NCBI RefSeq assembly: GCF_041886205.1
Contig: NZ_CP169029.1
Direction: 5' to 3' (one strand)
DNA length: 64,000 bases
From: Escherichia coli
GTDB taxonomy: Bacteria; Pseudomonadota; Gammaproteobacteria; Enterobacterales; Enterobacteriaceae
The stretch's first letter is position 1. The number at the start of each line of letters is the position of its first letter. Shown piece by piece: positions 5,257-57,794 of the stretch. The position numbers and the translations under genes were made by a program. The notes beneath the pieces are model-generated. The model was not told the DNA's origin and searched no databases. It worked only from the letters and a program-made list of their open reading frames with translations.

Positions 5257-6603
5257 ATGTTAAACAGTATTTTAGTCATACTCTGCTTGATCGCTGTAAG
5301 TGCGTTCTTCTCGATGTCCGAGATCTCACTTGCCGCCTCACGCAAAATCAAACTTAAACTGCTGGCTGATGAAGGCAATATAAATGCCCAACGCGTTCTG
5401 AATATGCAGGAAAATCCCGGCATGTTCTTTACCGTGGTCCAAATCGGTCTGAACGCAGTGGCGATTCTCGGCGGTATCGTCGGTGATGCGGCATTTTCTC
5501 CAGCTTTTCACAGCCTGTTCTCCCGCTATATGTCGGCAGAGCTCTCTGAGCAACTGAGCTTTATTCTCTCTTTCTCGTGTTAGTGACTGGCATGTTTATC
5601 CTGTTTGCGGATTTAACCCCGAAACGCATCGGTATGATTGCGCCAGAAGCTGTGGCTTTGCGTATCATCAACCCGATGCGCTTCTGCCTGTACGTTTGCA
5701 CCCCGCTGGTGTGGTTCTTCAACGGCCTGGCGAACATGATCTTCCGTATTTTCAAACTGCCAATGGTACGTAAAGATGACATCACTTCTGATGACATCTA
5801 CGCGGTAGTGGAAGCCGGTGCGCTGGCGGGCGTGTTACGTAAACAGGAACACGAGCTGATTGAAAACGTCTTTGAGCTGGAATCCCGAACCGTTCCGTCT
5901 TCAATGACACCGCGTGAAAACGTGATTTGGTTTGATCTCCACGAAGATGAGCAAAGTCTGAAGAATAAGGTGGCGGAACATCCGCACTCTAAGTTCCTCG
6001 TCTGTAATGAAGATATTGACCACATCATCGGCTATGTCGATTCTAAAGACCTGCTGAACCGCGTGCTGGCTAACCAAAGCCTGGCACTGAACAGCGGCGT
6101 ACCAAATTCGCAACACGCTGATTGTGCCGGATACGTTAACCCTTTCAGAGGCGTTGGAAAGTTTTAAAACCGCAGGTGAAGACTTCGCGGTGATCATGAA
6201 CGAGTACGCGCTGGTGGTGGGGATCATCACCCTCAACGACGTGATGACCACGCTGATGGGCGATCTGGTCGGTCAGGGTCTGGAAGAGCAGATTGTCGCC
6301 CGTGATGAGAACTCATGGCTGATTGACGGCGGCACTCCGATTGACGACGTCATGCGCGTGCTGGATATTGACGAGTTCCCGCAGTCGGGCAACTACGAAA
6401 CCATCGGCGGCTTTATGATGTTTATGCTGCGTAAGATCCCGAAACGCACCGATTCGGTGAAATTCGCCGGCTACAAATTTGAAGTGGTGGATATCGATAA
6501 CTACCGCATCGACCAGCTGCTGGTGACCCGGATCGACAGCAAGGCCACCGCCCTTTCGCCAAAACTGCCTGACGCTAAAGATAAAGAAGAAAGCGTCGCG
6601 TAA
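5257..6603 (+). pseudogene. ytfL: ytfL (UPF0053/CNNM-type inner membrane protein, CBS + CorC domains); two frame breaks (near 5576-5580 and near 6100-6125)
   Basis: Three consecutive plus-strand ORFs 5257..5583, 5577..6167, 6124..6603 in frames 1,0,1; tandem GT duplication tcgtgtta at first junction. Confidence 0.8.
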
Positions 6604-6618
6604 CCCCCAGAAACATCA

Positions 6619-6641
6619 ACGGCTCCTGAATCAGGAGCCGT
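6619..6641. terminator. Bidirectional intrinsic terminator hairpin between convergent ytfL and ytfK
   Basis: Perfect 11-bp inverted repeat acggctcctga / tcaggagccgt. Confidence 0.6.
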
Positions 6642-6664
6642 CTTATTACTGCATAGCACTTTGG

Positions 6665-6871
6665 TTAAGCCATCTCTGTTTGCAGACGCATAACCTGACG
6701 GTTAACTTCGGACATCACTGACAAATGCAGCTTATCCTTCACTTTTGGGATAAGAATCTTACCCTTATCAAATTCAAAAGCGCCAACGTCCTTGATGTAT
6801 AACCGTCCACGGAACAGGATCTTTACGTACTTCGCCACCTGAAGTGGGTTGTACCGTTGGAAAATTTTCAT
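6665..6871 (-). CDS. ytfK: YtfK (DUF1107 small protein, 68 aa)
   Basis: ORF 6665..6937, start at internal Met [16 protein letters not shown]. Confidence 0.85.
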
Positions 6872-7198
6872 TGTTATCTCCTGCTGAGTATTACGCCTGT
6901 GCGGTGCCACAATCGGCCCAACTATTATGAGGCGCAAATTTTAATGCTTAGTGACTATAGACTATCCGGGCAATGTTTCCACCGCGTATAACTTTTTTTA
7001 CCTAAAGGTTACAATTATTCAGAATTATCTTTTTACCGAAGCGCGGTCTTCAGTATAAGCATTCATTTTTCATATGATTTGTGCGCTTGACCGCAAACTG
7101 GCATCACACTTGCGGGAAATTCGATAAATAGCACATATTATGATTAAAACTCAGACCCAAGTGGTCGGATCACCTGCATATCATAAGAAGGAAACACC

Positions 7199-7754
7199 AT
7201 GACCCTACGCAAGATTCTGGTACTCACCTGCCTGCTGTTGCCGATGATGGCTTCCGCACATCAGTTCGAAACCGGTCAGCGAGTGCCGCCGATTGGCATT
7301 ACCGATCGTGGCGAGTTGGTGCTTGATAAAGATCAGTTTAGCTACAAAACCTGGAACAGCGCGCAGTTAGTGGGAAAAGTGCGAGTACTGCAACATATTG
7401 CTGGTCGCACCTCTGCAAAAGAGAAAAACGCGACGCTGATTGAAGCGATTAAATCAGCGAAGTTACCGCACGATCGTTACCAGACCACCACCATTGTTAA
7501 CACCGACGACGCAATTCCGGGTTCCGGCATGTTTGTGCGCAGCAGTCTGGAGAGTAATAAAAAGCTTTATCCCTGGTCGCAGTTTATTGTCGATAGCAAT
7601 GGCGTCGCGCGCGGTGCCTGGCAGCTGGATGAAGAAAGTTCCGCTGTGTAGTGGTGCTGGATAAGGATGGTCGCGTGCAATGGGCCAAAGACGGGGCGCT
7701 CACTCAGGAAGAGGTGCAGCAAGTGATGGACCTGCTGCAAAAGTTGCTCAAATA
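7199..7754 (+). pseudogene. ytfJ: ytfJ (periplasmic YtfJ-family protein) with frameshift near 7645-7650
   Basis: ORF 7199..7651 ends ...EESSAV then continues VVLDKDGRVQWAKDG... in another frame to 7754; extra TG (ctgtgtag) at junction. Confidence 0.8.
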
Positions 7755-7817
7755 ATGGCAACAACATAGAGTCTGCAAAAATAATATTCCCCTGTCGATA
7801 CCTATGGGATAGGGGAA

Positions 7818-8757
7818 TTAAGTGTATGAGTTCTTACGCCGAACTAATACTGGTAACGCTAGTTGCTCTTTTTTAAACGCCTCAATGGTAGATTTATATT
7901 TCTCGCAAATCTCCTCTTCGGTAATATCACTATCTACCGCCAGATTCGCACTTACTATCGCATCCACTTGTTCGGCTAATTCCACTTGTTGGCAACCTGC
8001 ATTAACCAGAAAATTATAAATAAGAGAGTAATCTTCATCCTCCAAAACAACAAAGGAACCATTACGAAAACGTTCATCCCCTCCATAGATTGTAAGTACA
8101 GAGCCCAAAGATTCTATGACTATGGCAAAATTATCATCAATTATTTTTTCGTAAATAAATATACCATCCATCGCATTCTTTAATTCCACCTCCTGGTATT
8201 TGGAGTTCAAATTTACCCCGTTTTAATTTGCTTACTATATCCTCCAATAAGGCATAACCTAAAGACACGTCACCAAACGCCTGGCGAATATAACCTTTAA
8301 TCCTTTTCGGTATGTCAGACTGTTTTTTCGGTATGTCAGACTGTTTTTTCTGTAAAATATCCCAGGCATACAATCTTCTGTTTTGTTCTAACGGAAACTC
8401 GCGGTTTTTGAAATCCATGAATGAGTTATACTCATTTATTGTTATGGGAATTTCTTCGTATTCAAACCCACTGCCTCGCAATGTCATTGTATATTCGGCA
8501 CCGTTATCTTTAAGGCTGAAACTGATAAGAAACTTATCCATGGCGTTAACAGTTTCATTTTTTGATGAAAGTACCTGATAACTATTTTTATCAATCTGAG
8601 TTGCGCAACGAAAGAACTCCCTCAAAGTTAAGAGGCTATCATAATTCGAAACCCAATCTTTTTCCCTCCTAAATGCATGCTGAATATTATTAAAAAATTG
8701 TTTGAATGTGTTTTTGTATGCGATGATTTTACAAATAACTCCACCGCACCAATAAAA
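7818..8757 (-). pseudogene. ytfI: ytfI-like hypothetical protein, reading frame broken (overlap 8137-8210; no in-frame start found at 5' end)
   Basis: Minus-strand ORFs 7818..8210 and 8137..8625 overlap in different frames; low-GC, AT-rich; 5' limit approximate. Confidence 0.55.
8306..8347 (-). repeat. Perfect 21-bp tandem duplication inside ytfI-like ORF (encodes KKQSDIP x2)
   Basis: ttcggtatgtcagactgtttt repeated twice head-to-tail. Confidence 0.9.
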
Positions 8758-18421: not shown

Positions 18422-18522
18422 ATGAAGGGTCAACCAAAAGCCAGCTAAGGATTGTCTCTTTGATGACCTTACGTCTGGCTTCCAGTGCCTGGGGGGAAAC
18501 CATACTGATATGTTGACATCCT

Positions 18523-18542
18523 CCACGCCCTGAAGGACGTGG
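18523..18542 (-). repeat. Right-end subterminal hairpin of IS200/IS605 element (13 nt downstream of tnpB stop); candidate omega-RNA / TnpA recognition structure
   Basis: Top strand CCACGTCC-TTCA-GGGCGTGG, 8-bp stem with one G-T wobble. Confidence 0.6.
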
Positions 18543-18555
18543 ATCCCTGCTACGT

Positions 18556-19764
18556 TCAGGCTGTCGCCTGAATCATTTCGGTGGGTTCCTGCTTCAACGA
18601 GCGGCCTGACTGCACCATCTCTCCACAGGCAAGAACGGCGTGCCCCGCCGCTAAAATGTTACGAGCGCCATTTACATCGGCGTTCGCTGTATATCCACAT
18701 GCCTGGCATCTGAATTTACTTTGTGACAGGCGATTTTCTTTCGCTGTATGACCACAGCACGCGCATCGCTGGCTTGTGTACGCTGGCGGAACAGCAAGCA
18801 CCTGACCGCCACGCCAGAGCTGCTTGTACTCAAGCTGGCGGCGCATTTCATACCAGCCCTGATCCAGTATCGTACGGTTTAAACCTGATTTTGCCCGGAC
18901 ATTGCGACCCGGCTGGCTGACCGTACCCGCTGCTGACTTTGACATGTTGCTGACCTTCAAATCCTCAATGACTATCATTGCGTGGTTTTTGCTGACGGTC
19001 GTTGTGACTTTGTGAAGGTAGTCCCTGCGGATATTTGCGATACGGGAATGCAGTCGCTGTATTTTGCGTTCCTGCTTCTGCCAGTTATTGCTGAATTTGA
19101 CCTTGCGGCTTAACTGTCGCTGAAGTCTCGCCAGCTTCTTCTGGTTTTTCTGAAAACTGTTTACAGGCTCAAAGACTGTGCCATCTGACAGCGTGGCGAG
19201 TTTAGCCACGCCAGCATCCAGCCCGACCATTGATGCTGAAGGGTGAACCGGAGTTGATACTTCACTTTCTGTCTGAATACTGATGTACCACTTACCGCAG
19301 GACTGGCTGACAGTGACATTTTTCACAACTCCCGTGACCTGACGGCTATTCCGGTAGCGCATCCAGCCCAGTTTCGGCAGAAAAATACGGCTGTTTTCCT
19401 GATCGAGCTTAACGCCCTGCGGGTAGCGGAATGCATCATTCTGTCCCCGCTTTTTGAATCGGGGAAAAGCAGCCCGCTTCTGGAAGAAGTTTTTGTAAGC
19501 CCGCTCAAGGTCTTTCAGTGACTGTTGCAATGGCTGTGACGGGGCATCTTTAAGCCATTGCGTTTCAGTGGCATTTTTCCACTCAACCAGCCAGGAAGCC
19601 ATTTTTCCGTAAGGGATGTATTTATTACCGGCCTCATGATTCTCATTCTGACGTGCCAGAGCACGATTGAAAACGAAACGACATGCGCCTGCGAAGCGCC
19701 TCATTTCACGCTCCTGTTGACCACCGGGTCTTAACTGGAATTTAAATGCCTGTAGTCGTTTCAC
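18556..19764 (-). CDS. tnpB: TnpB (IS605 OrfB) RuvC-like RNA-guided endonuclease, 402 aa, apparent GTG start
   Basis: RuvC-I D in [10 protein letters not shown], RuvC-II E in [11 protein letters not shown], zinc finger CACCGH...CQACGY, RuvC-III D in ADVNGARNI. Confidence 0.85.
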
Positions 19765-19771
19765 AGGCCAA

Positions 19772-20386
19772 ATGATACTTTGGTCTGTGAAAAAAGAAAC
19801 CGATATCCGGCGTGGAAGGCATTGTGTTTTCCTGATGCATGTTCACCTGGTCTTTGTCACCAAATACCGACGCCAGATTTTTGACCATGACGCGACAGAA
19901 AAACTACGCACTTACTTTTCAAAGGTATGTGCTGATTTTGAAGCTGAACTGGTTGAAATGGATGGCGAACCAGATCACGTCCATTTGTTAATTAACTATC
20001 CTCCCAAACTGGCGATATCCAGTCTGGTAAACAGCCTCAAAGGCGTATCGGGTAGGTTACTGCGACGAGATCGACCAGATATTGCAGTCAGGTATTACTA
20101 CAAAGGCGTTTTGTGGAGTCCTGGCTATTTTGCCAGTAGCTGCGGAGGTGCGCCAATATCCGCCATCCGTCAATACATTGAACAACAGCAAACACCTGGT
20201 CAGGTGGAAAACCGCGCCGTATATCCCCGCCCTGAAGGACGGGGTTTTACGGCGCACCGGATAAACCAGGCCAAGCGTATGCTGGTTGATCCAATAATAT
20301 CCCCCAAGCGCAGCAATATTAATATTCACCTGCAATGGGTCGATATCTGGCTTAAAAATATTGTGTTTCTTTCCTTCATCCAATAA
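19772..20386 (+). CDS. tnpA: TnpA, IS200-type HUH Y1 transposase; ORF lacks a stop inside the predicted element and reads through the left end
   Basis: KYRR motif, HUH motif DHVHLLI, C-terminal Tyr in AIRQYIEQQ; start ATG only 7 bp from divergent tnpB start; functional protein probably ends near 20230-20260. Confidence 0.75.
20225..20244 (-). repeat. Left-end subterminal hairpin of IS200/IS605 element
   Basis: Top strand CCCCGTCC-TTCA-GGGCGGGG; shares loop and 12-nt core with right-end hairpin. Confidence 0.6.
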
Positions 20387-20604
20387 GGATTCCATTAACT
20401 GCAAGTGCGCATGGTTAATTTCTAAGAGACGCTGTGATTTTGCATAATGCACACCTTTACTTTGATTTTCACTATGCACAATTTTTAAAAACCACGGGTT
20501 AGCAATATAATAATCCCATGTAAAATCAATAATTTTCTCAATGGCTTTTTGTGGCTGGTTAACCAGATGATTAACAAACGCACCGATACCGACAGCGTAG
20601 AATA
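20245..20604 (-). pseudogene. ytfA: ytfA remnant: C-terminal portion of a possible TetR-like regulator, no N-terminal HTH or start; 3' end runs into the IS element
   Basis: Open frame ...[77 protein letters not shown]... preceded by stop; continues antisense through tnpA 3' region. Confidence 0.5.
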
Positions 20605-21037
20605 ATTACATACCGCACAACAAGAATGTATGGTGTAAGGCGTGGAAGTCATTTTCTTCCCGGGTGCATCGTTATATCCGTGATGAGCGATTTTTGATAT
20701 TAATATCTTTCACCATCCGCTATTTTTACTACTTCAGAAAACAAACTTATTTTTATTAATATCGATTCTTTTTCTGTAAGCATTTAACTACGATATTTAT
20801 AAAAACATTAAACAGGTAACATTACAATGACATTACCAACGACTATTTATTCATTTCGTGCATATTTACCTCGTTTTTCGTCCACCGACAAACCAGTAAA
20901 ATTAAAATTTCATGAATATGCCCGTGCTACATTACTGCCAAATCGTGGAAGAGATCATAATTGCGATGGCAGACGTACTGTTGTGAACCGCCCCGGGAAT
21001 CCTGGAGACTAAACTTCCTGAGAAAGAGGTAAACAGG

Positions 21038-21364
21038 ATGACTAAAAATACTCGTTTTTCCCCCGAAGTCCGTCAACGGGCAGTCCGTATGGTTCTGGAA
21101 AGTCAGAGCGAATATGACTCACAATGGGCGACAATTTGTTCCATTGCTCCAAAGATTGGCTGTACGCCGGAGACTCTGCGTGTCTGGGTTCGCCAGCATG
21201 AGCGGGATACCGGGGGCGGTGATGGAGGGCTCACCACCGCTGAACGTCAGCGTCTGAAAGAGCTGGAACGTGAAAATCGTGAACTGCGCCGCAGTAACGA
21301 TATCCTTCGCCAGGCTTCCGCTTATTTTGCGAAGGCGGAGTTCGACCGCCTCTGGAAAAAATGA
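21038..21364 (+). CDS. IS629 OrfA (HTH transposase subunit, 108 aa)
   Basis: [31 protein letters not shown]...; leucine-zipper-like C-terminus. Confidence 0.9.
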
Positions 21365-22251
21365 TGCCACTGCTGGATAAGCTGCGTGAGCAGTACGGGG
21401 TCGGACCGCTATGCAGCGAACTGCATATTGCCCCGTCAACGTATTACCACTGTCAGCAACAGCGACATCATCCGGATAAACGCAGTGCCCGTGCGCAGCG
21501 CGATGACTGGCTGAAGAAAGAGATACAGCGCGTATACGATGAAAATCACAAGGTATACGGTGTGCGTAAAGTCTGGCGTCAGTTGTTACGGGAAGGTATC
21601 AGAGTGGCCAGATGCACTGTGGCACGTCTCATGGCGGTTATGGGACTTGCCGGTGTTCTCCGGGGTAAAAAGGTCCGTACGACCATCAGCCGGAAAGCCG
21701 TTGCCGCAGGCGACCGCGTAAACCGTCAGTTCGTGGCAGAACGACCTGACCAGCTGTGGGTGGCTGATTTTACTTACGTCAGCACATGGCGGGGCTTCGT
21801 CTATGTGGCGTTCATCATTGATGTGTTTGCCGGATACATCGTGGGGTGGCGGGTCTCATCGTCCATGGAAACGACATTCGTGCTGGATGCACTGGAGCAG
21901 GCGTTATGGGCCCGTCGACCGTCCGGCACGGTCCATCACAGTGATAAAGGTTCTCAGTATGTATCGCTGGCCTACACACAGCGGCTTAAGGAAGCCGGAT
22001 TACTGGCATCAACAGGAAGTACAGGCGACTCGTATGACAACGCGATGGCGGAGAGCATCAATGGTCTTTACAAAGCGGAGGTAATACACCGTAAGAGCTG
22101 GAAAAACCGTGCAGAAGTGGAACTGGCCACACTCACGTGGGTGGACTGGTATAACAATCGACGATTGCTGGAAAGGCTGGGCCATACTCCTCCGGCAGAA
22201 GCAGAAAAAGCTTATTATGCTTCCATCGGAAACGATGATCTGGCAGCCTGA
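21361..22251 (+). CDS. IS629 OrfB (DDE integrase/transposase catalytic subunit, 296 aa); overlaps orfA, typical -1 frameshift arrangement
   Basis: rve-type core ...[49 protein letters not shown]...[11 protein letters not shown]...[15 protein letters not shown]. Confidence 0.9.
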
Positions 22252-22954
22252 GTTCACAGATAAAACACTCTCCAGGAAACCCGGGGCGGTTCAGTTGAGA
22301 TCCACAAACTAGATCTCTCAGACTGGCAAGCATTCAATAAACTAGCGATGGCGTGTAATGCTTACGATGGAATAACAATGAATGGTGATAATTCTTTTGG
22401 ATGGAACCATGAAGCTACATTAGATAATATTCACGCCCAGAAATACAATAAAGCTTACGCGGGTGCGAGGTTAACCGCAGAACTGAAATATTTATTGCAA
22501 GATGTCGAATCCTTCGAACCCAACAGTAAATACACAATACATGAGGTTGTTTTGGGACCTGGTTATGGTACTCCAGATTATACCGGCCAAACGATAGGAT
22601 ACGTTGTAACCCTTCCTGCCCAAATGCCTAATTGCTGGTCATCTGAACTACCAACAATCGATCTTTATATCGACCAACTTCGCACTGTTACAGGCGTTTC
22701 TAATGCCCTCGGATTCATCATTGCTGCATTGCTAAACGCGTATTCTGATTTACCCCATGATTTGAAAATTGGTCTACGTTCCTTATCAAATTCAGCAGCA
22801 ATCTACTCGGGTTTGGGTTTCGAGCGAGTGCCGCAGGACCGAGACATAAGGAGTGATCGTATGCATCTAACGCCAGCAAACCATCCTGACTTATGGACAC
22901 AAGAGAATGGTGAATGGATCTACTTGCGAAACTAATACCTGACGAAAAATAGAA

Positions 22955-22986
22955 AGCAAAACGCCGACCAATGGTCGGCGTTTTTA
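22955..22986. terminator. Bidirectional intrinsic terminator between convergent yjfZ and rplI
   Basis: cgccgacc aat ggtcggcg hairpin flanked by A-run upstream and T-run downstream. Confidence 0.7.
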
Positions 22987-23005
22987 CGTCTCGTTGAATA
23001 ACGAA

Positions 23006-25111: not shown

Positions 25112-25121
25112 ATACGGTTAT

Positions 25122-25673
25122 TCACCGAATTGCGACTTCCGGATCTGGCTCATGAGTAATGCGATTACGTAAGTCGCGGCGCATAATCTCTATTATCCAG
25201 AACCAGAAAATATGCCCCAGGATTTCAGACGCATATTCGTCAAAAGGCAATTGAGTGAGCGGCGGCGTTAAATTCAGCGCCGGGCAAAATATACCGTGGA
25301 CTGCCACTGTCACAATAAGCCCTGCTAATATCCCCTGCCATAATTTCACTTTCGGGAAAATTTCCGCGACAACACAATACCCTATCGCAAAAACCAGTGA
25401 GAAGATGATATGCGTCACCATCACCGGGTTGATAATATGTTCCGAGAATGTGTACACAGTTTGGGTTGGGTTGATACCTAAATAATCTCGTAGAAAGATA
25501 TACGGCGGGTTAAATTCATCGCGACCACCGGAAAATGTGCGCGGTGGCAAGGGGACTTCCGCTCCCCATTTAACAAATGCTGAAATAATTCCTGAAAGTA
25601 CACCCACAAGTAACGCAACGCCATAGCGGCGACGCTGCGGATCCGTTCTGACAAACAATCCTTTGATAGCCAT
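25122..25673 (-). CDS. hypothetical inner membrane protein, YagU/DUF1440-like (183 aa, 3-4 predicted TM helices); not recalled at this position in K-12
   Basis: [47 protein letters not shown]...; hydrophobic segments; family assignment from memory only. Confidence 0.55.
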
Positions 25674-25767
25674 AAAGCACCTGATGTTGATGATTTTATT
25701 AACTGGAGAGGCCCCGGAATCAGACCAATTACATCCCGCAGGAGGTAATAATTCCGGGGCGCACTGC

Positions 25768-37128: not shown

Positions 37129-37767
37129 TTAGCCTCCCCAATGCCCACGGGCGCTGGAAGAACGACCATAGCCGCCGCGCGAAACGGTCGACGCTTTTCT
37201 GGTGGTAAAGCCGCCTGAAGAGTAAGACTCTTTTTTGCCAGAACCGGAGCGCCAGGAGTAATCACCAGAAGTGTTGCGCCAGACGGGGCGCGAAGCAAAA
37301 GAGGAACCGCCGCTGTTATAAACAAACTGCTCATCGCGATCTTTACGAATAACCCGGCTTAACAAAAATCCAGAAACGACCGGGATCCAACTCTGTTCAA
37401 CGTTGTCGTAGTAACAATTTTCATACTTAGACTGACAATTCTGCTGAGTCATATTCTTCGGAACATCGGCATAAAATGCTGCTTTGGCGTTGTTCCAGCC
37501 ACGCGCGCAAATGTCGGCATTATTACCGTCATCAATACAATCCTGCACAGTCGAGTAAAACGTTCCGTCGCCGTCGTTATCGACATCGCTACTTTCACTC
37601 CATCCTTTGACTATTAAAAAAGCGGCACCGCCCATTAGCGCCAACGTTAAGTATTTTTGTGCGTAGCGATTGCGACGCGGTTCAAAAGGATTATTCGGTC
37701 TACCAATGCGACTGATCGCTCCGTGACCAATTTTACTGTTATTTCTTGATTTGCGTTTTCTGGCCAT
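37129..37767 (-). CDS. yjfM: YjfM (DUF1190 protein)
   Basis: 212-aa ORF MARKRKSRNNSKIGHGAISRIGRPNNPFEP. Confidence 0.85.
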   Translation of the reverse strand: MARKRKSRNNSKIGHGAISRIGRPNNPFEPRRNRYAQKYLTLALMGGAAFLIVKGWSESSDVDNDGDGTFYSTVQDCIDDGNNADICARGWNNAKAAFYADVPKNMTQQNCQSKYENCYYDNVEQSWIPVVSGFLLSRVIRKDRDEQFVYNSGGSSFASRPVWRNTSGDYSWRSGSGKKESYSSGGFTTRKASTVSRGGYGRSSSARGHWGG

Positions 37768-37776
37768 GATCGTCCA

Positions 37777-38175
37777 TTACCATGTCATACAAGCTGCGTT
37801 AAAAATACCGCCAGCCAGCGCGGCGGTTCCCATAAACATTCCTGCTGCGGTATTGTGATTAATAATTTTTTCGCTTAATGCGGGCATATAAAGTCTGACA
37901 CCAGCAAAAACGAGTAACTGAATCACCAGTGCAATCCCGCCCCAGGCGAAATAGTCTGGAATACTCACCGCATTGATTGCCGCACTGGATAAGGGGATCA
38001 CGTAACCCAACAATGTACCGCTGAATGCTAGTGACGCCGCGGTATTATTGTTTTTGATTAATTGCCATTCGTTGTGCGGTGTAATTTTGGAGTAGATAAA
38101 CAGAAAAATAATCACCATAGCCACGCCAATAAAAAAATAGGCGCTAAAGGCAAGAAGTGAATCCAGTATATGCAT
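37777..38175 (-). CDS. yjfL: YjfL (DUF350 inner membrane protein)
   Basis: ORF 37777..38256, start at MHILDSLLAFSAYFFIGVAMVIIFLFIYSK (132 aa). Confidence 0.85.
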   Translation of the reverse strand: MHILDSLLAFSAYFFIGVAMVIIFLFIYSKITPHNEWQLIKNNNTAASLAFSGTLLGYVIPLSSAAINAVSIPDYFAWGGIALVIQLLVFAGVRLYMPALSEKIINHNTAAGMFMGTAALAGGIFNAACMTW

Positions 38176-38192
38176 TGTAAACGTCCTTGTAA

Positions 38193-38852
38193 TTAACCAA
38201 TAATATGAAGTGATGTCAGCGGAATATCGACACCCAACGCGCGCGAAAATAACCACTCTGGCTCGCCGAGATCGTTAAAAGATTCCTCACCATTTAACAG
38301 CAAATATTCGTAAGTATCTTCGGTCACTTGCCGCTGGTAGCCCATGGTAAAATTATGGACCTCCCATTTGGCATGGTTTTGATTTTCTACTTTTTCCAGC
38401 ATGTAGACGGGTTCGATATTTCCCGGTTCTTCGCTGTTAAAAAATCGCTGCCAGCGTTTTCCCTGCCAGTTTAAGGTCATTGCCCCCATCGCTTTAGCGT
38501 TGATCGCCTCGCGCCAGTGACTCTCTTTACTGATACCGTAGCTCTCTTCATAGACAAAGAGCTTGATATCATCAATGTCATCAATATTTTCGCCGCCGGT
38601 GGTATTGATTTGCAGAAACTCATCGCCTGAAGTGTAGTAGCGGAAAATCTGGCTACCGCCGCCCAGATCGATGCGACTGACAGCGGCTACCGTAAATTCC
38701 TCACCCGGCAGCGCAATCAGCAATTCATCTTCCAGCAAACGAAACGCTAACGTGTCAAGCGTAAAGCCACTATTGAGATGAAGTCCCAGCGGACCGCGAG
38801 CGATAGCAGGCTTATTATCCTTGCCAAACAGACGCTGGAAAAAACCAGACAT
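38193..38852 (-). CDS. yjfK: YjfK (DUF2491 protein)
   Basis: 219-aa ORF MSGFFQRLFGKDNKPAIARGPLGLHLNSGFTLD. Confidence 0.85.
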   Translation of the reverse strand: MSGFFQRLFGKDNKPAIARGPLGLHLNSGFTLDTLAFRLLEDELLIALPGEEFTVAAVSRIDLGGGSQIFRYYTSGDEFLQINTTGGENIDDIDDIKLFVYEESYGISKESHWREAINAKAMGAMTLNWQGKRWQRFFNSEEPGNIEPVYMLEKVENQNHAKWEVHNFTMGYQRQVTEDTYEYLLLNGEESFNDLGEPEWLFSRALGVDIPLTSLHIIG

Positions 38853-38902
38853 ATTTTATCCTTAAAATAGTTGCCAGCCTTGCAGTGAGGCTGGCAAAAA
38901 AA

Positions 38903-39601
38903 TTACTCGCCCTGTTGGCGTTGCAGTCTTGCTAATACATCCTGGGCGCTACTTTTATTGCTACCGCCAATTCCGGCTTCCGCCAGCTTTTCGTCAAGGT
39001 CGCGACCGTCTGCGACTTTCTCCAACTGTGCGGCAGCATCCAGGCGAGCCTGACGTTCGGCCTGACGCGTTTGCAGGCGTTTTAAGGATTCTGCCGCTGT
39101 CGAAACGCTGGAAGATGCGCCAACGGTAGAGGTTGTTACAGCCTGTTGTGCACGCTGCATGGCTTCAGTGGCTTTAACGACTTCCATTTGCTGCTCAAAC
39201 TGAGCGATACGCTGCGCTGTCGCTGTAACTGCTTTTTCCACGCCATCACGGGAGACTTCCAGATTCGACAACACTTGCTCTTCAGCGGTAATGAGATTCT
39301 CAAGGCGCGCGATTTCTTCAGCAACTTCGTTAATCAACGACGGATTAACGTTCTTGCTTAACGCTTCCAGCGCACGGGCTTCCAGACTGGCTTTGCGCTC
39401 ACGTAAATCTTTCAGCTTATCGTGACTTAATTTCACCCGCGCCAGCAGATCAACGCGAGATTTTCCGGCTTTATCGAGTTCAGCTTTAGCGTCACGAATA
39501 TGCTGTTCCAGCATGCGCACGCCCTGGGTTTCTTCAATGGATTCTTCCGCCTGGGAGATAAACGATTTCCCCAGCGTAAATAAACTTTTTAAAATTCCCA
39601 T
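38903..39601 (-). CDS. yjfJ: YjfJ, PspA/IM30-family coiled-coil protein
   Basis: 232-aa ORF MGILKSLFTLGKSFISQAEESIEETQGVRMLEQHIRDAKAELDKAGKS. Confidence 0.88.
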   Translation of the reverse strand: MGILKSLFTLGKSFISQAEESIEETQGVRMLEQHIRDAKAELDKAGKSRVDLLARVKLSHDKLKDLRERKASLEARALEALSKNVNPSLINEVAEEIARLENLITAEEQVLSNLEVSRDGVEKAVTATAQRIAQFEQQMEVVKATEAMQRAQQAVTTSTVGASSSVSTAAESLKRLQTRQAERQARLDAAAQLEKVADGRDLDEKLAEAGIGGSNKSSAQDVLARLQRQQGE

Positions 39602-39619
39602 AAATACCCGTCCTTGTAA

Positions 39620-40021
39620 TTAGTGTGAATATTCTTCTGTAATTTCAGCCAGATCCAATGCGTTATCTACCAGCGAGGTTATCTCAAGCAGGATATCTTC
39701 AAGAGAAGATTTAAGCGATAACGCCCCGAAAACAATGTAATACTCTTCCTGTTGTACGCTGGAGATCCCTACCGATGACAACGGCATCATCTTCTGATTT
39801 CTTAATAAGAAGGTATTAAATTCATCTGGATTGCTGATACTACTCACCGGACAAATAAAGGTTTCGATAATCATTTGGCGGGAAGTAAAAAGAATATTGA
39901 TTTGCAAATCGCCATAATCATTCATTTTAATAATTAATGCGTTCTCGCTATTTGTTACATCAATATTTTGTTCAGGTACAGTTTGCAGCGCTGTCGCTAG
40001 CGCCAACGGATTCCATGTCAT
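39620..40021 (-). CDS. yjfI: YjfI (DUF2170 protein)
   Basis: 133-aa ORF MTWNPLALATALQTVPEQNIDVTNSENALIIKMNDYGDLQINILF. Confidence 0.85.
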   Translation of the reverse strand: MTWNPLALATALQTVPEQNIDVTNSENALIIKMNDYGDLQINILFTSRQMIIETFICPVSSISNPDEFNTFLLRNQKMMPLSSVGISSVQQEEYYIVFGALSLKSSLEDILLEITSLVDNALDLAEITEEYSH

Positions 40022-40100
40022 ATATTATTCCATATAGATTAAGTTTAAATATTAATAAAATGAATATTTGCAATACGTAATTATCTTACCAGCTATAGAC

Positions 40101-40127
40101 AAAAAAAAACCATCCAAATCTGGATGG
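40101..40127 (-). terminator. Rho-independent terminator downstream of rlmB
   Basis: ccatcca aatc tggatgg hairpin followed on minus strand by T9. Confidence 0.8.
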
Positions 40128-40147
40128 CTTTTCATAATTCTGAGAAA

Positions 40148-40879
40148 TTAGCTGCGCTGGCGCACCGCTTCAAATAAGCAAATTCCGGTCGCAACCGAAA
40201 CGTTCAGGGAAGAAACGCTTCCAGCCATCGGGATGCTGATCAACTCATCGCAATGTTCACGAGTCAGGCGACGCATACCTTCACCTTCCGCACCCATCAC
40301 CAGCGCCAGGCGTCCGGTCATTTTGCTCTGATAGAGTGTATGATCCGCCTCGCCTGCCGTACCGACGATCCAGATATTCTCTTCCTGCAACATACGCATG
40401 GTGCGCGCAAGGTTAGTCACCCGAATCAGCGGAACGCTTTCTGCCGCGCCGCAGGCTACTTTTTTCGCCGTAGCGTTGAGCTGTGCGGAGCGATCTTTCG
40501 GCACAATCACCGCATGAACGCCTGCGGCGTCCGCACTACGCAGGCACGCGCCGAGGTTGTGCGGATCGGTTACGCCGTCGAGGATCAGCAGGAACGGTTG
40601 ATCGAGCGAAGCGATCAGATCCGGCAGATCGTTTTCCTGATACTGACGTCCTGGCTTCACGCGGGCGATAATGCCCTGATGCACGGCACCGTCGCTTTTC
40701 TCGTCGAGATATTGGCGGTTTGCCAACTGGATAACCACGCCCTGAGACTCAAGGGCGTGAATCAGCGGTAACAGACGTTTATCTTCACGGCCTTTTAAAA
40801 TAAAGACTTCCTGAAAACGTTCAGGGGCGCGCTCCAGCAGGGCCTGCACTGCGTGGATGCCGTAAATCATTTCGCTCAT
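40148..40879 (-). CDS. rlmB: 23S rRNA (guanosine2251-2'-O)-methyltransferase RlmB
   Basis: 243-aa [33 protein letters not shown], SpoU methylase. Confidence 0.92.
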
Positions 40880-40903
40880 TAATGTACTCGTTGTTTACGT
40901 TTT

Positions 40904-41002
40904 GCCTGATGCACTACGTTTATCCGGCCTACATGATCTCTGCAATATATTGAATTTGCGTGATTATGTAGGCCGGATAAGGCGTTCACGCCGCATCCGG
41001 CA
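40904..41002. repeat. REP/BIME palindromic repeat pair between rlmB and rnr
   Basis: gcctgatgcactacgtttatccggcctac ... gtaggccggataaggcgttcacgccgcatccggca. Confidence 0.7.
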
Positions 41003-41058
41003 TGAACAAAGCGCATTTTGTCAGCAATCTAACCCTCTTCTTTTAAAGAGGGTATTGA

Positions 41059-43500
41059 TCACTCTGCCACTTTTTTCTTCGCCGCACGCTTCGCTTTGGT
41101 CGCTGCAGCTATTTTCTGCGTTTTCGCCGATGGCTTTTTCGCTTTTCTCGCGTCTTTCTTCGCCGCTTTCGGCTTCGTTTTTTTCTCACCGCGGAAGGCG
41201 CTGTCTGGCTCAAAGTTTACCTTTTTACCGACCTGACGACGCTTGCCGCCTTTTTTACCTGCATCGCCTTTTTTCGCTTTCTCGCGCGCCGTTTTACCGA
41301 CGTTGCGCGGTGCGCGTTCGCTGGAGATCAGGCTAAAGTCGATTTTGCGCTCGTCCATATTAACCGCTTCGACGCGAACTTCCACGCGATCGCCCAGGCG
41401 ATAAGTCTGGCCGCTGGATTCCCCCATCAGGCGTTGCCCCACCTGGTCAAAGCGATAGTAGTCATTGTCCAGCGAAGAGACATGGACCAGACCATCAATG
41501 AACAAGTCGTCCAGACGGACGAAGAAGCCAAAGCCAGTGACGCTGGAAATTACGCCTTTAAAGACGTTACCTACCTGGTCGAGCATGAAGTCACACTTCA
41601 GCCAGTCAGCCACATCGCGCGTTGCTTCGTCGGCACGACGTTCCGCCATCGAACAGTGCTGACCCAGTTGCAGCATCTCTTCCATCGAATAATGGTAGCC
41701 GCCGGTTTCAGTGGTGTTGCCCTGATGCCCCTGCTCTTTCGCCAGCAGATATTTAATGGCGCGGTGCAGCGTCAGGTCTGGATAACGACGAATCGGCGAA
41801 GTAAAGTGCGCATAGGACTGCAATGCCAGGCCAAAGTGACCACGGTTTTCTGGATCGTAAATCGCCTGTTTCATCGAGCGCAGCAGCATGGTTTGCAGCA
41901 TTTCTGCATCAGGACGATCGGCAACCGACTCCAGCAGCTCCGCGTAGTCACGCGGTTCCGGCTTGTTACCGCCCGGCAGTTCCAGCCCCAGCTCCGCCAG
42001 CACTGAACGGAAAGAGGTAATCGCTTCGGTGCTCGGCTTGTCGTGAATACGGAACAGTGCCGGTTCTTTCGCTTTCTCAACGAAACGCGCCGCCGAGATA
42101 TTCGCCAGAATCATGCACTCTTCAATTAATTTGTGCGCGTCGTTACGCTGAGTCTGTTCGATACGTTCAATACGGCGTTCAGCGTTGAAAATGAACTTCG
42201 CTTCTTCGCTCTCAAATGAGATCCCACCGCGTTCTTCACGGGCTTTATCCAGCACTTTATAGAGGTTATGCAACTCTTCGAGATGCTTAACCAGCGGGGC
42301 GTACTGCTCGCGCAGATCCTGATCGCCCTGCAGAATATGCCAGACTTTGGTGTAGGTCAGACGCGCGTGAGAGCTCATCACCGCTTCGTAGAATTTGTAG
42401 CCCGTCAGGCGGCCTTTCGACGAAACCGTCATCTCGCACACCATACACAGGCGGTCTACCTGCGGGTTGAGCGAACACAGGCCGTTAGAGAGCACTTCCG
42501 GCAGCATCGGGATAACCTGCGAAGGGAAGTACACCGACGTGCCACGGTTACGCGCTTCTCTGTCCAGCGGCGTTGACGGACGCACATAGTAGCTGACGTC
42601 GGCAATCGCGACCCATAAACGCCAGCCGCCGCCGCGTTTTTTCTCGCAGTAAACTGCATCGTCAAAGTCACGGGCGTCTTCGCCATCAATGGTGACCAGC
42701 GGTAAATAGCGCAGATCAACACGGCCCGCTTTTGCTTCTTCCGGCACTTCTTCTTTCAGCCCGGCAACCTGTTGCTCAACAGCCTGCGGCCAGATGTACG
42801 GAATTTCATGGGTACGCAGAGCGATATCAACCGCCATGCCGGTGCCCATATTGTCGCCCAGCACTTCGACGATTTTACCCACCGCTTTGGTGCGGCGAGT
42901 CGGACGCTGAGTCAGTTCGACTACGACCACAAAGCCCATCCGCGCGCCCATGATCTGATCGGGCGGGATTAAGATATCGAAGCTCAGACGGCTGTCGTCA
43001 GGAACCACAAAGCCGACGCCCGCTTCGGTAAAGTAGCGACCAACAATCTGGCTGGTTTTTGGCACCAGTACGCGGACAATACGCGCTTCACGACGACCTT
43101 TACGGTCAGCACCCAGCGGCTGAGCCAGCACCTGATCGCCATGAATGCAGGTTTTCATCTGCTCGCTGGAGAGATACAAATCATCTTTACGCCCTTCAAC
43201 CCGTAGAAAGCCGTAGCCATCACGGTGGCCAATAACGGTACCTTTCACCAGGTCGAGGCGTTCCGGCAGCGCATAGCACTGACGACGAGTGAAGACCAGT
43301 TGACCATCGCGCTCCATCGCGCGCAGGCGGCGACGCAGGCCTTCAAGCTGCTCTTCGCCTTCAATGTGCAGTTCTACCGCCAGCTCATCACGGCTGGCCG
43401 GTTTTTCACGTTTGGTTAAATGTTCGAGGATAAATTCCCGACTAGGGATGGGATTCGCGTATTTTTCAGCTTCGCGTTCCTGGAAAGGATCTTGTGACAT
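41059..43500 (-). CDS. rnr: ribonuclease R
   Basis: ORF 41059..43542, start at [28 protein letters not shown] (813 aa); lysine-rich C-terminal tail. Confidence 0.93.
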
Positions 43501-43538
43501 CTCGGTTCCTCCGTTGTCATCTCTGATGAAGATTTTCG

Positions 43539-43964
43539 TCACTCCACCAGCAATAATTTATAAAGCGGTTGATTCTCTTCAACCAAATCGGCAAGCGTGT
43601 AGTTATCCAGTTCCGTAAGAAAACTTTGCACGGCCTTAGAAAGTGCCTGTTTCAACCTACAGGCAGGTGTAATGTGGCAAAACTCACTGCTGCAATTCAC
43701 CAGCGATAAGGGCTCCAGCTCGCGCACCACATCACCAATACGTATCGCACTCGCCGGTTTACCCAGGCGAATGCCGCCATTTTTTCCACGAACAGCAGTC
43801 ACGTAGCCGGCACGACTAAGTTGATTGATTATTTTGACCATATGATTACGGGAGACGCCGTAGACGTCAGTCACTTCAGAAATACTGGTCATCCGCCCTT
43901 CTGGCAATGACGCCATGTAGATCAGCGCACGTAATCCGTAATCAGTGAAACTCGTTAACTGCAC
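43539..43964 (-). CDS. nsrR: nitric-oxide-sensing Rrf2-family repressor NsrR
   Basis: 141-aa [58 protein letters not shown]. Confidence 0.93.
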
Positions 43965-44168
43965 ATCAACCTCAAAAGGGAAATCGGGAAAAAATACATT
44001 TATATTGATGATAAACCAGCCACAAGCTGTGTCGCTAATTTATTTCAGTTCGGGGAAGGAAAAAAGCGAGGATTTAACACTGTGTCGGATAGCGTAATGG
44101 CTTACCCGACACAGCAATGTATCACACTGTTCGCCCGGCAGGCAAAATATCTGCCAGGCGTACCAGAA

Positions 44169-45470
<1,302 letters not shown>

Positions 45471-45570
45471 TCAAAATCACCGTTTGCTTAAAAATGGATT
45501 CTACCATCGCTTTTTCAGAGTTACAGCACTTTTTGCACTCAAAAATGACCTCGATCAGTCTGTTTTTTGT

Positions 45571-45768
45571 TCAGCCAATCGTTTTCCTCAACATGTAGTA
45601 GACCACAACGCCCGCAACCACAAGTCCACCGCCAAAACGACGTAAAATATTATCGGGCAAATTGGTCATCGCAGAGATCATCTTCTTCCATGCCTTCGGG
45701 TAAAGCATCGGCCCTAAACCTTCCAGTACCAAAACCAGGGCAAGCGCCAGCCAGATTGTCGAATTCAT
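45571..45768 (-). CDS. yjeT: YjeT (DUF2065 small membrane protein)
   Basis: 65-aa ORF MNSTIWLALALVLVLEGLGPMLYPKAWKKM. Confidence 0.8.
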   Translation of the reverse strand: MNSTIWLALALVLVLEGLGPMLYPKAWKKMISAMTNLPDNILRRFGGGLVVAGVVVYYMLRKTIG

Positions 45769-45782
45769 TCATTATCCTTATA

Positions 45783-45820
45783 GAAAAAGAAAACCACCGA
45801 CATCCCTGAGGATGCGGTGG
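45783..45820 (-). terminator. Rho-independent terminator downstream of hflC
   Basis: Minus strand gccaccgcatcc tcag ggatgtcggtggt followed by tttctttttct. Confidence 0.7.
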
Positions 45821-45849
45821 CTTTATTGACCTGTACCGCAGTCGTTATA

Positions 45850-46854
45850 TTAACGCGTTGCGGAAGTCGGCGTCTTCATGTAGCGGAAGAAATCGCTATC
45901 CGGGCTCATGACCATCACGTCCTGATTGCCAGAGAAGCTGTTCTCATAAGCACGCAGGCTACGGATGAATGCGTAGAAGTCCGGATCTTTACTGAATGCA
46001 TCAGCAAACAGTTTGGCTGCTTCGGCATCGCCTTCACCACGCATGATGCGGCCCTGACGCTCAGCTTCTGCCAGCGTTCTGGTCACTTCATAGTCGGCAG
46101 TCGCGCGCAGTTTTTCCGCTTCTTCCTGACCTTGTGAACGGTGACGACGCGCTACCGCTTCACGCTCGGCGCGCATACGGTTGTAGATCGCTTCAGACAC
46201 TTCGGTCGGCAGGTTGATCTGCTTGATACGCACATCGACAACTTCAATACCCAGCGCCGCCATACTGTTCGGGTTGATGACCGGAACTTTGCCCTTCGTC
46301 TCAGCCGTTACGCGCTCTGCCGCTTCGGCAATGGCGTTATCTGCCGCCGGGGTAGTAACTTCATCTTCTGTACCCGCAGAACCGGAGTTCAGCGCGTCAC
46401 GTACTTCGAGGGTCAGACGACCACGGGAATCGGTGACGATATCTTTCACGTCCAGACGACCAATTTCAGAACGCAGACGGTCAGAGAACTTACGTTTCAA
46501 CAGCACTTCCGCTTGCGAAATGTCGCCACCACCCGTTGCCAGGTAGTAACGGCTGAAATCGCTGATGCGCCATTTGATGTAAGAGTCGACGATCAGGTCT
46601 TTCTTCTCTTTGGTCACAAAGCGGTCGGCCTGGTTGTCCATGGTCTGAATACGTGCGTCGAGCATTTTCACCGTTTCAATGAACGGTATCTTGAAATGCA
46701 GACCCGGCTCATAAACCAGAGGTTTGTTGTCATCGTCACGCAGTACCTTACCAAAACGCAGCGTAATACCGCGCTCACCTTCTTTGACGACAAAGACAGA
46801 CATGTAAAGCACTACCAGCACGATGATGATAATCGCGATAACTGACTTACGCAT
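45850..46854 (-). CDS. hflC: HflC, FtsH protease modulator
   Basis: 334-aa ORF MRKSVIAIIIIVLVVLYMSVFVVKEGERGI. Confidence 0.95.
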   Translation of the reverse strand: MRKSVIAIIIIVLVVLYMSVFVVKEGERGITLRFGKVLRDDDNKPLVYEPGLHFKIPFIETVKMLDARIQTMDNQADRFVTKEKKDLIVDSYIKWRISDFSRYYLATGGGDISQAEVLLKRKFSDRLRSEIGRLDVKDIVTDSRGRLTLEVRDALNSGSAGTEDEVTTPAADNAIAEAAERVTAETKGKVPVINPNSMAALGIEVVDVRIKQINLPTEVSEAIYNRMRAEREAVARRHRSQGQEEAEKLRATADYEVTRTLAEAERQGRIMRGEGDAEAAKLFADAFSKDPDFYAFIRSLRAYENSFSGNQDVMVMSPDSDFFRYMKTPTSATR

Positions 46855-46856
46855 CG

Positions 46857-48116
46857 TTATTCCCCCTGACGCTGGTAGTCGTTACGCTGCGCGTTGGCGC
46901 GGCGTTGGTCCATAATATCGCCCTGACTGGTGGACGACGTGTTGCTTGCTCCACTGGTTGTGGAGGAAGAGGCTGGCGGCAGACGCAGCAGATTGCTGGC
47001 ACCGTTATCGCTCTTCGCCGCAGGGGCGTTACCACCTTTCAGCATCTGGTCTAACGGCAGAACCATCAGGTTGCCACCTTTATCGTTAACCAGCACTTTG
47101 CGGGTGTTACCCAACACTTTTTCCATCGTCTCGATATACAGACGCTCGCGAGTAATTTCCGGCGCGGCTTTATATTCCGGCAGAAGTTTAGCAAAGCGCG
47201 CCACTTCACCCTGAGCTTCCAGGATGGTCTGGGCCTTGTACGCACGCGCCTCTTCGAGGATACGTTGCGCCTGACCGTTCGCACGCGGCTGAACTTCGTT
47301 GGTATACGCTTCTGCTTCACGAATGTATTGCTGTTCGTTTTCACGCGCGGCAATCGCATCGTCAAACGCCGCTTTTACTTCTTCCGGCGGACGAGCAGCC
47401 TGGAAGTTGACGTCCAGCAGCGTGATACCCATGTCATACGGACGAATCGTCTCTTCCAGTTCGCGCTGAGTATCGCTACGAATCACGGTACGACCTTCCG
47501 TCAGAATGCGGTCCATGGTGTATTTACCGATAACTCCACGCAGGGCGCTGTCGGTAGCCTGACGCAGGCTGTCATCCGGGCTGGTCACGCTATACAGATA
47601 TTTTTCCGGATTGGTGACGCGGTACTGCACGTTCATCTCAACGCGCACTACGTTCTCGTCCGACGTCAGCATCACACCAGAAGCGGCCAGTTCACGCACG
47701 GCTTCCACGTTCACCGGTTTGACTTCGTCGATAAACGTCGGTTTCCAGTTCAGACCCGGCTCAACCAGATGGCTGAATTTACCAAAGCGTGTTACCACGC
47801 CGCGTTCGGCTTCTTTAATGGTATAGAAACCACTGGCCGCCCAGATAATGACAATCGCTGCCGCTGCGATGGTAACGACACGACCGCCAAGCTGCGGGCG
47901 CGGGCCTTGCGATGAACTGCCACCGCCAGATCCGGTGCCTTTACCGCCGCCCAGACCACCGAGCTTTTTACTCAGTTTGCGGAAGATATCATCTAAATCA
48001 GGTGGCCCTTGATCGCGACCGCCTTTGTTTCCATTTCCCTCAGAGTTGCCGCCAGGTTTGCTGCTTCCCCACGGGTCGCGGTCTTGTCCGTTATTACCGG
48101 GCTGATTCCACGCCAT
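46857..48116 (-). CDS. hflK: HflK, FtsH protease modulator
   Basis: 419-aa ORF MAWNQPGNNGQDRDPWGSSKPGGNSEGNGNKGGRDQGPPDLDDIFRKL. Confidence 0.95.
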   Translation of the reverse strand: MAWNQPGNNGQDRDPWGSSKPGGNSEGNGNKGGRDQGPPDLDDIFRKLSKKLGGLGGGKGTGSGGGSSSQGPRPQLGGRVVTIAAAAIVIIWAASGFYTIKEAERGVVTRFGKFSHLVEPGLNWKPTFIDEVKPVNVEAVRELAASGVMLTSDENVVRVEMNVQYRVTNPEKYLYSVTSPDDSLRQATDSALRGVIGKYTMDRILTEGRTVIRSDTQRELEETIRPYDMGITLLDVNFQAARPPEEVKAAFDDAIAARENEQQYIREAEAYTNEVQPRANGQAQRILEEARAYKAQTILEAQGEVARFAKLLPEYKAAPEITRERLYIETMEKVLGNTRKVLVNDKGGNLMVLPLDQMLKGGNAPAAKSDNGASNLLRLPPASSSTTSGASNTSSTSQGDIMDQRRANAQRNDYQRQGE

Positions 48117-57226: not shown

Positions 57227-57495
57227 TTCATCCACAGCTTGTGAATAAAAATAAAAACGCATTGCAATTCAAGACGAATAAAATCGTCAAGTGATCGACT
57301 CGACAAAACGGAATCTTAATTTTTAACTTATCTATCAATAGGTTAAAAAAATACTATTCACCGTGCGAAGTTTCTTTGAAATTAAGATTACAGCCTGAGG
57401 CTGTGGATAACTCTGTTTACAAGAGTTTGTCAGAGACAACAAAAACCAGCAATAACGCATCGCGTCGCTGTGGATATTTTATTGAGAGAAGAATT

Positions 57496-57571
<76 letters not shown>

Positions 57572-57606
57572 TTGGGTGGTCTGTGCCTTACAGCACTTTC
57601 AAATTT

Positions 57607-57682
<76 letters not shown>

Positions 57683-57718
57683 TTGGGTGGTCTGTGCTTT
57701 GTAGCACTTTTCAAATTT

Positions 57719-57794
<76 letters not shown>

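Follow-up and report, generated by a model that had tools for sequence, protein, structure and literature searches.

A full-length, apparently functional IS629 element in the yjfZ gene of Escherichia coli: a probable recent insertion

In the 64-kb stretch of Escherichia coli DNA analyzed here (the window), the yjfZ gene is interrupted by an insertion sequence (IS). The locus raises the question of which element is involved, how precisely it was incorporated, whether it could still be mobile, and what its presence may tell about the background of the host strain. Taken together, the evidence makes it very probable that a full-length, apparently functional IS629 has recently inserted into codon 53 of yjfZ, co-directionally with this gene, duplicating the sequence GTTG and inactivating yjfZ. 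This is an ordinary insertion of an already known element, and the analysis provides refinements only: the length of the duplication (4 bp) and the fact that IS629 is a poor indicator of lineage. A literature search found no mention of IS629 together with yjfZ.

Structure of the element and of its insertion site

The element is a complete IS629 (IS3 family) of 1310 bp, located at positions 20984–22293 (plus strand). IS3 family members are typically ~1.2–1.55 kb long and carry terminal inverted repeats with 5′-TG…CA-3′ ends. The element opens with TG and closes with CA; its 5′ end is TGAACCGCCCCGGG, and its 3′ end is the reverse complement of this sequence. The 14-mer occurs at exactly two sites in the 64-kb window, which are the two ends of the element, in inverted orientation. 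No additional IS629 copies were found within the window, where only this single copy is visible. The 25-bp left terminal inverted repeat (IRL, TGAACCGCCCCGGGAATCCTGGAGA; 20984–21008, plus strand) is complementary to the right one (IRR; 22269–22293, minus strand) at 23 of 25 positions, and a script comparison showed that the two differ only at positions 15–16 (AA versus TT). Inspection of the sequence and a script check confirmed the extent of the element given in a preliminary description of this DNA, and the imperfect 25-bp repeats reported there were likewise recovered.

The IS divides yjfZ into two fragments. The 5′ fragment (20827–20983, plus strand) was recognized from the ORF list, a match to Pfam DUF2686 (E=5.7e-17) and alignment with K-12 yjfZ. 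It comprises codons 1–52 and, from codon 53, the initial base; the split previously placed after codon 52 was thus confirmed, with the cut lying one base into the next codon. The final four bases of this fragment constitute the left copy of the target-site duplication (GTTG, 20980–20983). The right copy (GTTG, 22294–22297) directly follows the element, and the presence of GTTG on both sides agrees with the initial observation. The 3′ fragment (22294–22935, plus strand) extends from the duplicated GTTG through the stop codon; it was delimited by alignment with K-12 and strain C9 and matches profile positions 91–285 of Pfam DUF2686 (E=1.5e-114).

The empty site is found in yjfZ of K-12 (b4204; 795 bp, 264 aa), where it reads ...GACGTACTGTTGAGATCC... 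and contains one GTTG, and also in strain C9 (NZ_CP010129.1), again with one GTTG. The K-12 comparison confirmed both the point of insertion and a duplication of 4 bp. In silico removal of 1314 bp (the element and one GTTG) restored a 795-bp yjfZ ORF encoding 264 aa, i.e. of K-12 length, and no intact yjfZ ORF was restored by removal of 1310 or 1313 bp. The gene is therefore contiguous upon excision; the single reading frame foreseen in the preliminary description was obtained, and its size, given there as ~265 aa, is corrected to 264 aa. In its interrupted state, the truncated yjfZ frame runs into the IS and reaches a stop codon at 21010–21012, resulting in a predicted 61-aa product. The longest ORF left in the 3′ fragment starts with the ATG at 22348 and encodes 195 aa.

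From the sequence alone, the junctions (GTTG–TG…CA–GTTG) may be parsed in two ways: as a 4-bp duplication around a 1310-bp element, or as a 3-bp duplication (TTG or GTT) around an element of 1311 bp. Duplications of 3 bp are common for IS629 and were found at three other copies (ATA, GAT, GTG). However, in five other copies with the same 1310-bp TG…CA ends, the adjoining base is G, A, T, G and A on the left side, and C, A, G, G and G on the right side. Since these outside bases are unrelated, the G next to the element does not belong to it. In addition, the alignments of the left and right flanks to C9 overlap by exactly 4 bp, and an annotated IS629 (LC567824) has a 4-bp duplication (CTGG), so that both lengths are represented among the copies fetched for comparison. 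A range of 3–4 bp has also been reported for IS629 target duplications (PMC3271280). Judged from these comparisons, the duplication is 4 bp long (GTTG) and surrounds a 1310-bp element; the 3-bp reading (TTG with a 1311-bp element), which had been offered earlier as an alternative, is rejected as extremely improbable.

The element lies in the same orientation as yjfZ. Since rplI, the gene located after yjfZ, is convergent to it, no polar effect on the neighbours is expected. A scan of the region 20600–23000 with promoter and terminator consensus sequences yielded nothing above the shuffled expectation. YjfZ, whose function is unknown, is a DUF2686 protein found exclusively in E. coli and Shigella (PMC11057252; Pfam). 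The insertion matters little beyond annotation, in which yjfZ deserves to be entered as a pseudogene, with IS629 as the interrupting element.

Coding capacity and predicted transposition mechanism

The element contains two overlapping ORFs, both on the plus strand. The first, orfA (21038–21364), encodes a 108-aa predicted helix-turn-helix DNA-binding/regulatory protein, which also forms the N-terminal part of the transposase (Pfam HTH_Tnp_1, E=7.4e-13). The second, orfB (21361–22251), is placed in the −1 frame and encodes a 296-aa protein with the catalytic domain, as indicated by matches to Pfam HTH_21, rve (97 bits) and rve_3 and by the positions of the catalytic motif. The ORF list confirmed that both are intact, as originally described, and that their overlap consists of the sequence ATGA (21361–21364).

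In the IS3 family, orfB is found in the −1 frame of orfA, with an A-rich slippery site in the overlap, and a lysine or arginine is located seven residues after the catalytic glutamate. A run of six adenines (A6; 21356–21361, plus strand) at the orfA/orfB overlap of the analyzed element was identified as the site of programmed −1 frameshifting, on the basis of the sequence, the open fused frame and the PGAP annotation of identical copies. In this IS3 subgroup, frameshifting is associated with an RNA structure, the ALIL pseudoknot (Rfam RF01497). Analysis with cmscan located it at 21319–21435 (plus strand), with 120.2 bits (gathering score: 50) and E=8.3e-32, over model positions 1–117 of 117. 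Joining orfA and orfB at the A6 run produced an open frame for a 404-aa OrfAB protein. This protein matched positions 1–369 of the 369-position profile NF033516 (NCBIfam IS3 family transposase, equivalog) with 365 bits, the cut-off being 160. The catalytic residues of OrfB are D136, D195 and E231 (with the 35-residue D–E spacing), followed by K238, which corresponds to the DD(35)E+K signature. The element thus shows the length, TG…CA ends, overlapping ORFs, slippery site, transposase model, DD(35)E motif, RNA structure and 3–4 bp duplication that define the IS3 family. No disabling mutations were identified in the element, and its coding and frameshift signals are all intact.

The steps of IS3 family transposition are established biology. 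For the analyzed element, translation of orfA alone would yield a DNA-binding regulator, and programmed −1 frameshifting at the A6 run, an event with which the ALIL pseudoknot is associated, would yield the 404-aa DDE transposase OrfAB. The transposase would bind the 25-bp terminal repeats, and transposition would proceed by the copy-out-paste-in route via a circular intermediate with abutted ends. Cutting of the target with a stagger of 3–4 bp, followed by repair, would generate the flanking duplication and, as a consequence, YjfZ would be lost. The function of OrfAB, generated by −1 frameshifting, as the transposase and the way in which the IS3 family moves, by copy-out-paste-in, have been described (bioRxiv 10.1101/2023.06.07.543989). 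Reduction of transposition or excision by OrfA and OrfB alone has also been reported.

The truncated yjfZ frame stops 26 nt before the start codon of orfA. Since the element is also co-directional with yjfZ, read-through from the yjfZ promoter, in transcription and translation, could raise transposase output. It might be supposed that this has turned the copy into an unusually active donor, responsible for the expansion of IS629 in a lineage belonging neither to EHEC nor to Shigella, or else that the loss of YjfZ was selected; both proposals are speculative and considered unlikely.

Relationship to known IS629 copies

Comparative analysis revealed that the 1310-bp sequence is 100% identical, from end to end, to dozens of copies on E. 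coli and Salmonella plasmids, and identical copies were also found in chromosome and phage records. Among them are the copies in AF017626.1 (phage 21-type integrase gene, E. coli EC38), plasmid pMB9081_1 (NZ_CP103541.1) and chromosome NZ_CM129861.1. In the two last-mentioned records the encoded transposase is WP_151327001.1, which PGAP describes as “IS3 family transposase, programmed frameshift”, accompanied by the ALIL pseudoknot. All three copies occupy other targets and are flanked by the 3-bp duplications mentioned above (ATA, GAT, GTG), in contrast to the 4 bp observed in yjfZ.

An element annotated as “insertion sequence:IS3 family IS629” is present in the Stx2a-converting phage Stx2_499 (LC567824.1, 51315–52624). 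Its alignment with the analyzed copy is ungapped, with 1304 of 1310 positions identical (99.5%) and six substitutions (element positions 81, 124, 285, 808, 857 and 887). Both elements are 1310 bp long, have identical ends and encode OrfA of 108 aa and OrfB of 296 aa. The phage copy sits elsewhere, in a phage regulatory gene, and its 4-bp duplication is annotated as CCAG, which reads CTGG on the strand of the window. A second reference copy is the IS629 of Shigella sonnei Ss046 plasmid pSS_046 (NC_007385.1, 33848–35157), which is also 1310 bp long, has the same ends and is 99.54% identical without gaps, with six substitutions (positions 124, 202, 285, 360, 808 and 1095). S. sonnei is the species of the original description of IS629 (PMC3271280). 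The flanks of the pSS_046 copy do not match (TTAA on one side and GTTG on the other). Since they differ, this copy has probably been rearranged, or has suffered a deletion alongside it, since its insertion, by an IS-mediated event.

Two elements are considered the same IS by ISfinder convention when they share at least 95% nucleotide identity. PGAP uses the description “IS3-like element IS1203 family transposase” for a copy on pO157 that shares only 96.2% identity with the analyzed element, and IS1203/IS1203v, the EHEC isoform of IS629, has the same family, size and organization. It could therefore be asked whether the element in yjfZ is an isoform (type IS1203 or IS3411) and not IS629 in the strict sense, which would be a difference in naming only, with the same mechanism. 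IS629 has sub-types that are 4–5% apart; IS1203 is regarded as an isoform (PMC3271280), and the two names are used interchangeably in the literature on excision (bioRxiv 10.1101/2023.06.07.543989). Against an isoform designation stand the 99.5% identity to both the annotated IS629 and the S. sonnei copy, as well as a 100% identical partial copy in H117, labeled “IS3-like element IS629 family transposase” by PGAP. It is thus very improbable that the isoform name would be the more appropriate one. The name IS629, assigned in the preliminary description, stands, with no substantial difference from IS629 revealed by the alignments; in place of the type sequence X51586, annotated copies and that of Shigella served as its references.

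In the search for yjfZ::IS629, some of the IS matches seemed to reach ~14 bp into the left flank. A target shared by several IS copies was considered and rejected: the flank matches are scattered and due to chance, the 3-bp duplications of these copies are different, and no target motif was inferred.

Distribution, age and genomic context of the insertion

The search of 5,426 complete RefSeq E. coli genomes revealed no place covering at least 80% of the yjfZ::IS629 query. Exact look-up of the 61-aa junction ORF identified one 930-bp contig of the draft assembly GCA_012373595.2. This contig corresponds to window positions 20108–21037, contains the same left junction and ends 54 bp inside the IS. 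Short-read assemblies typically break at repeats, as is the case here. No match to the left-junction 38-mer was found among GTDB species-representative genomes, and exact-protein look-up of the 195-aa C-terminal YjfZ ORF returned no record.

IS copies are a classic source of misassembly and, with the insertion seen in 0 of 5,426 complete genomes, misplacement of a repeat into yjfZ during assembly had to be considered. Such an artefact would hardly produce a 4-bp duplication that reproduces the empty-site sequence perfectly, nor an identical left junction, reaching 54 bp into the IS, on an independent NCBI draft contig, and it is regarded as extremely unlikely. Because the insertion is absent from the complete genomes and the same left junction occurs on the draft contig, it is real and limited to a very narrow lineage.

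The complete genome closest to this region is that of C9, whose flanks are 99.8–99.95% identical to the window. Relatives that lack the insertion are C9 (isolated from a cow), 6EVA (human) and wlxctx60 (bear); these are the isolates with the closest flanks, and the 2.8 kb immediately upstream of the site are identical in C9 and ~99.9% identical in the other two. The narrow lineage, combined with the complete identity to other copies, indicates that the insertion is recent. The copy also looks transposition-competent, as judged from its intactness and its identity to other copies. An old, fixed and inactive insertion was considered as an alternative. However, the element carries no disabling mutations, is 100% identical to widely dispersed copies, and is missing at this site even in relatives with flanks only 0.05–0.2% different, which makes this explanation very unlikely. 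The original view of a recent and potentially still mobile insertion is therefore supported as regards its age, and its mobility is made plausible by the intact signals and the identical copies. The case also shows a 100% conserved, apparently active variant of IS629 to be in wide circulation outside EHEC and Shigella.

The preliminary description had also taken IS629 as a hint of a Shigella or EHEC background. IS629 or its close relatives (including the IS1203 type) were found with at least 80% coverage of the element in 3,042 of the 5,426 complete E. coli genomes, the best match being at least 99% identical in 1,297 records. Because such copies are so frequent, and because the isolates with the nearest flanks came from a cow, a human and a bear, IS629 appears to be a weak pointer to this background. 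Shigella genomes are expected to be riddled with IS elements, a picture which the window does not present. It is colinear with K-12 over 64 kb (97.7–98.6% identity) and contains only three insertions relative to that genome: IS629, an IS609 remnant and a yagU-family gene.

The junction created by the insertion is a good strain- or clone-specific marker, being found in none of the 5,426 complete E. coli genomes and in one draft assembly. The yjfZ gene has itself been proposed as an E. coli/Shigella-specific marker for water-quality PCR (PMC11057252), for which the existence of IS-disrupted alleles is worth knowing. The “YjfZ” qPCR and Sanger primers and probe listed in that work (Table 1, Table A1) were compared with positions 20827–22935 of the window and with K-12 positions 4375001–4460000 (85 kb), and no match with up to 4 mismatches was found in either. 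As printed, these oligonucleotides may belong to another locus and, since none of the primers matches, no statement on failure of the assay is possible.

Approximately 0.7 kb upstream of IS629, a 1747-bp IS609 (IS200/IS605 family; 18513–20259) is located inside the TetR-family pseudogene ytfA. Its genes were transferred from the annotation of the 100% identical C9 sequence: tnpB, encoding an RNA-guided endonuclease (~18556–19764, minus strand), and tnpA (~19772–20197), which according to PGAP is missing its C-terminus. The tnpA frame of the window continues beyond the element, to position 20386. IS609 is absent from K-12 but occurs at the same site in 1,699 of the 5,426 complete E. coli genomes; since so many genomes share this site, its insertion, unlike that of IS629, is old. 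The region of ~600 bp between yjfY and ulaF (25112–25714) is also absent from K-12. The matching stretch of C9 contains a gene for a YagU family protein, which maps to ~25122–25673 on the minus strand of the window.

Comparison of C9 (NZ_CP010129.1) with window regions 6321–8686 and 37700–47636 revealed a rearrangement in C9, with copies of IS10-like (ISVsa5) and IS1 elements at its breakpoints. The window retains the K-12 gene order where C9 is rearranged, and C9 is thus the more IS-scrambled of the two in this part of the genome. Repeated self-matches in the K-12 comparison, at 57494–57794, were caused by a tandem triplet of tRNA-Gly(GCC) genes, which correspond to glyV, glyX and glyY of K-12.
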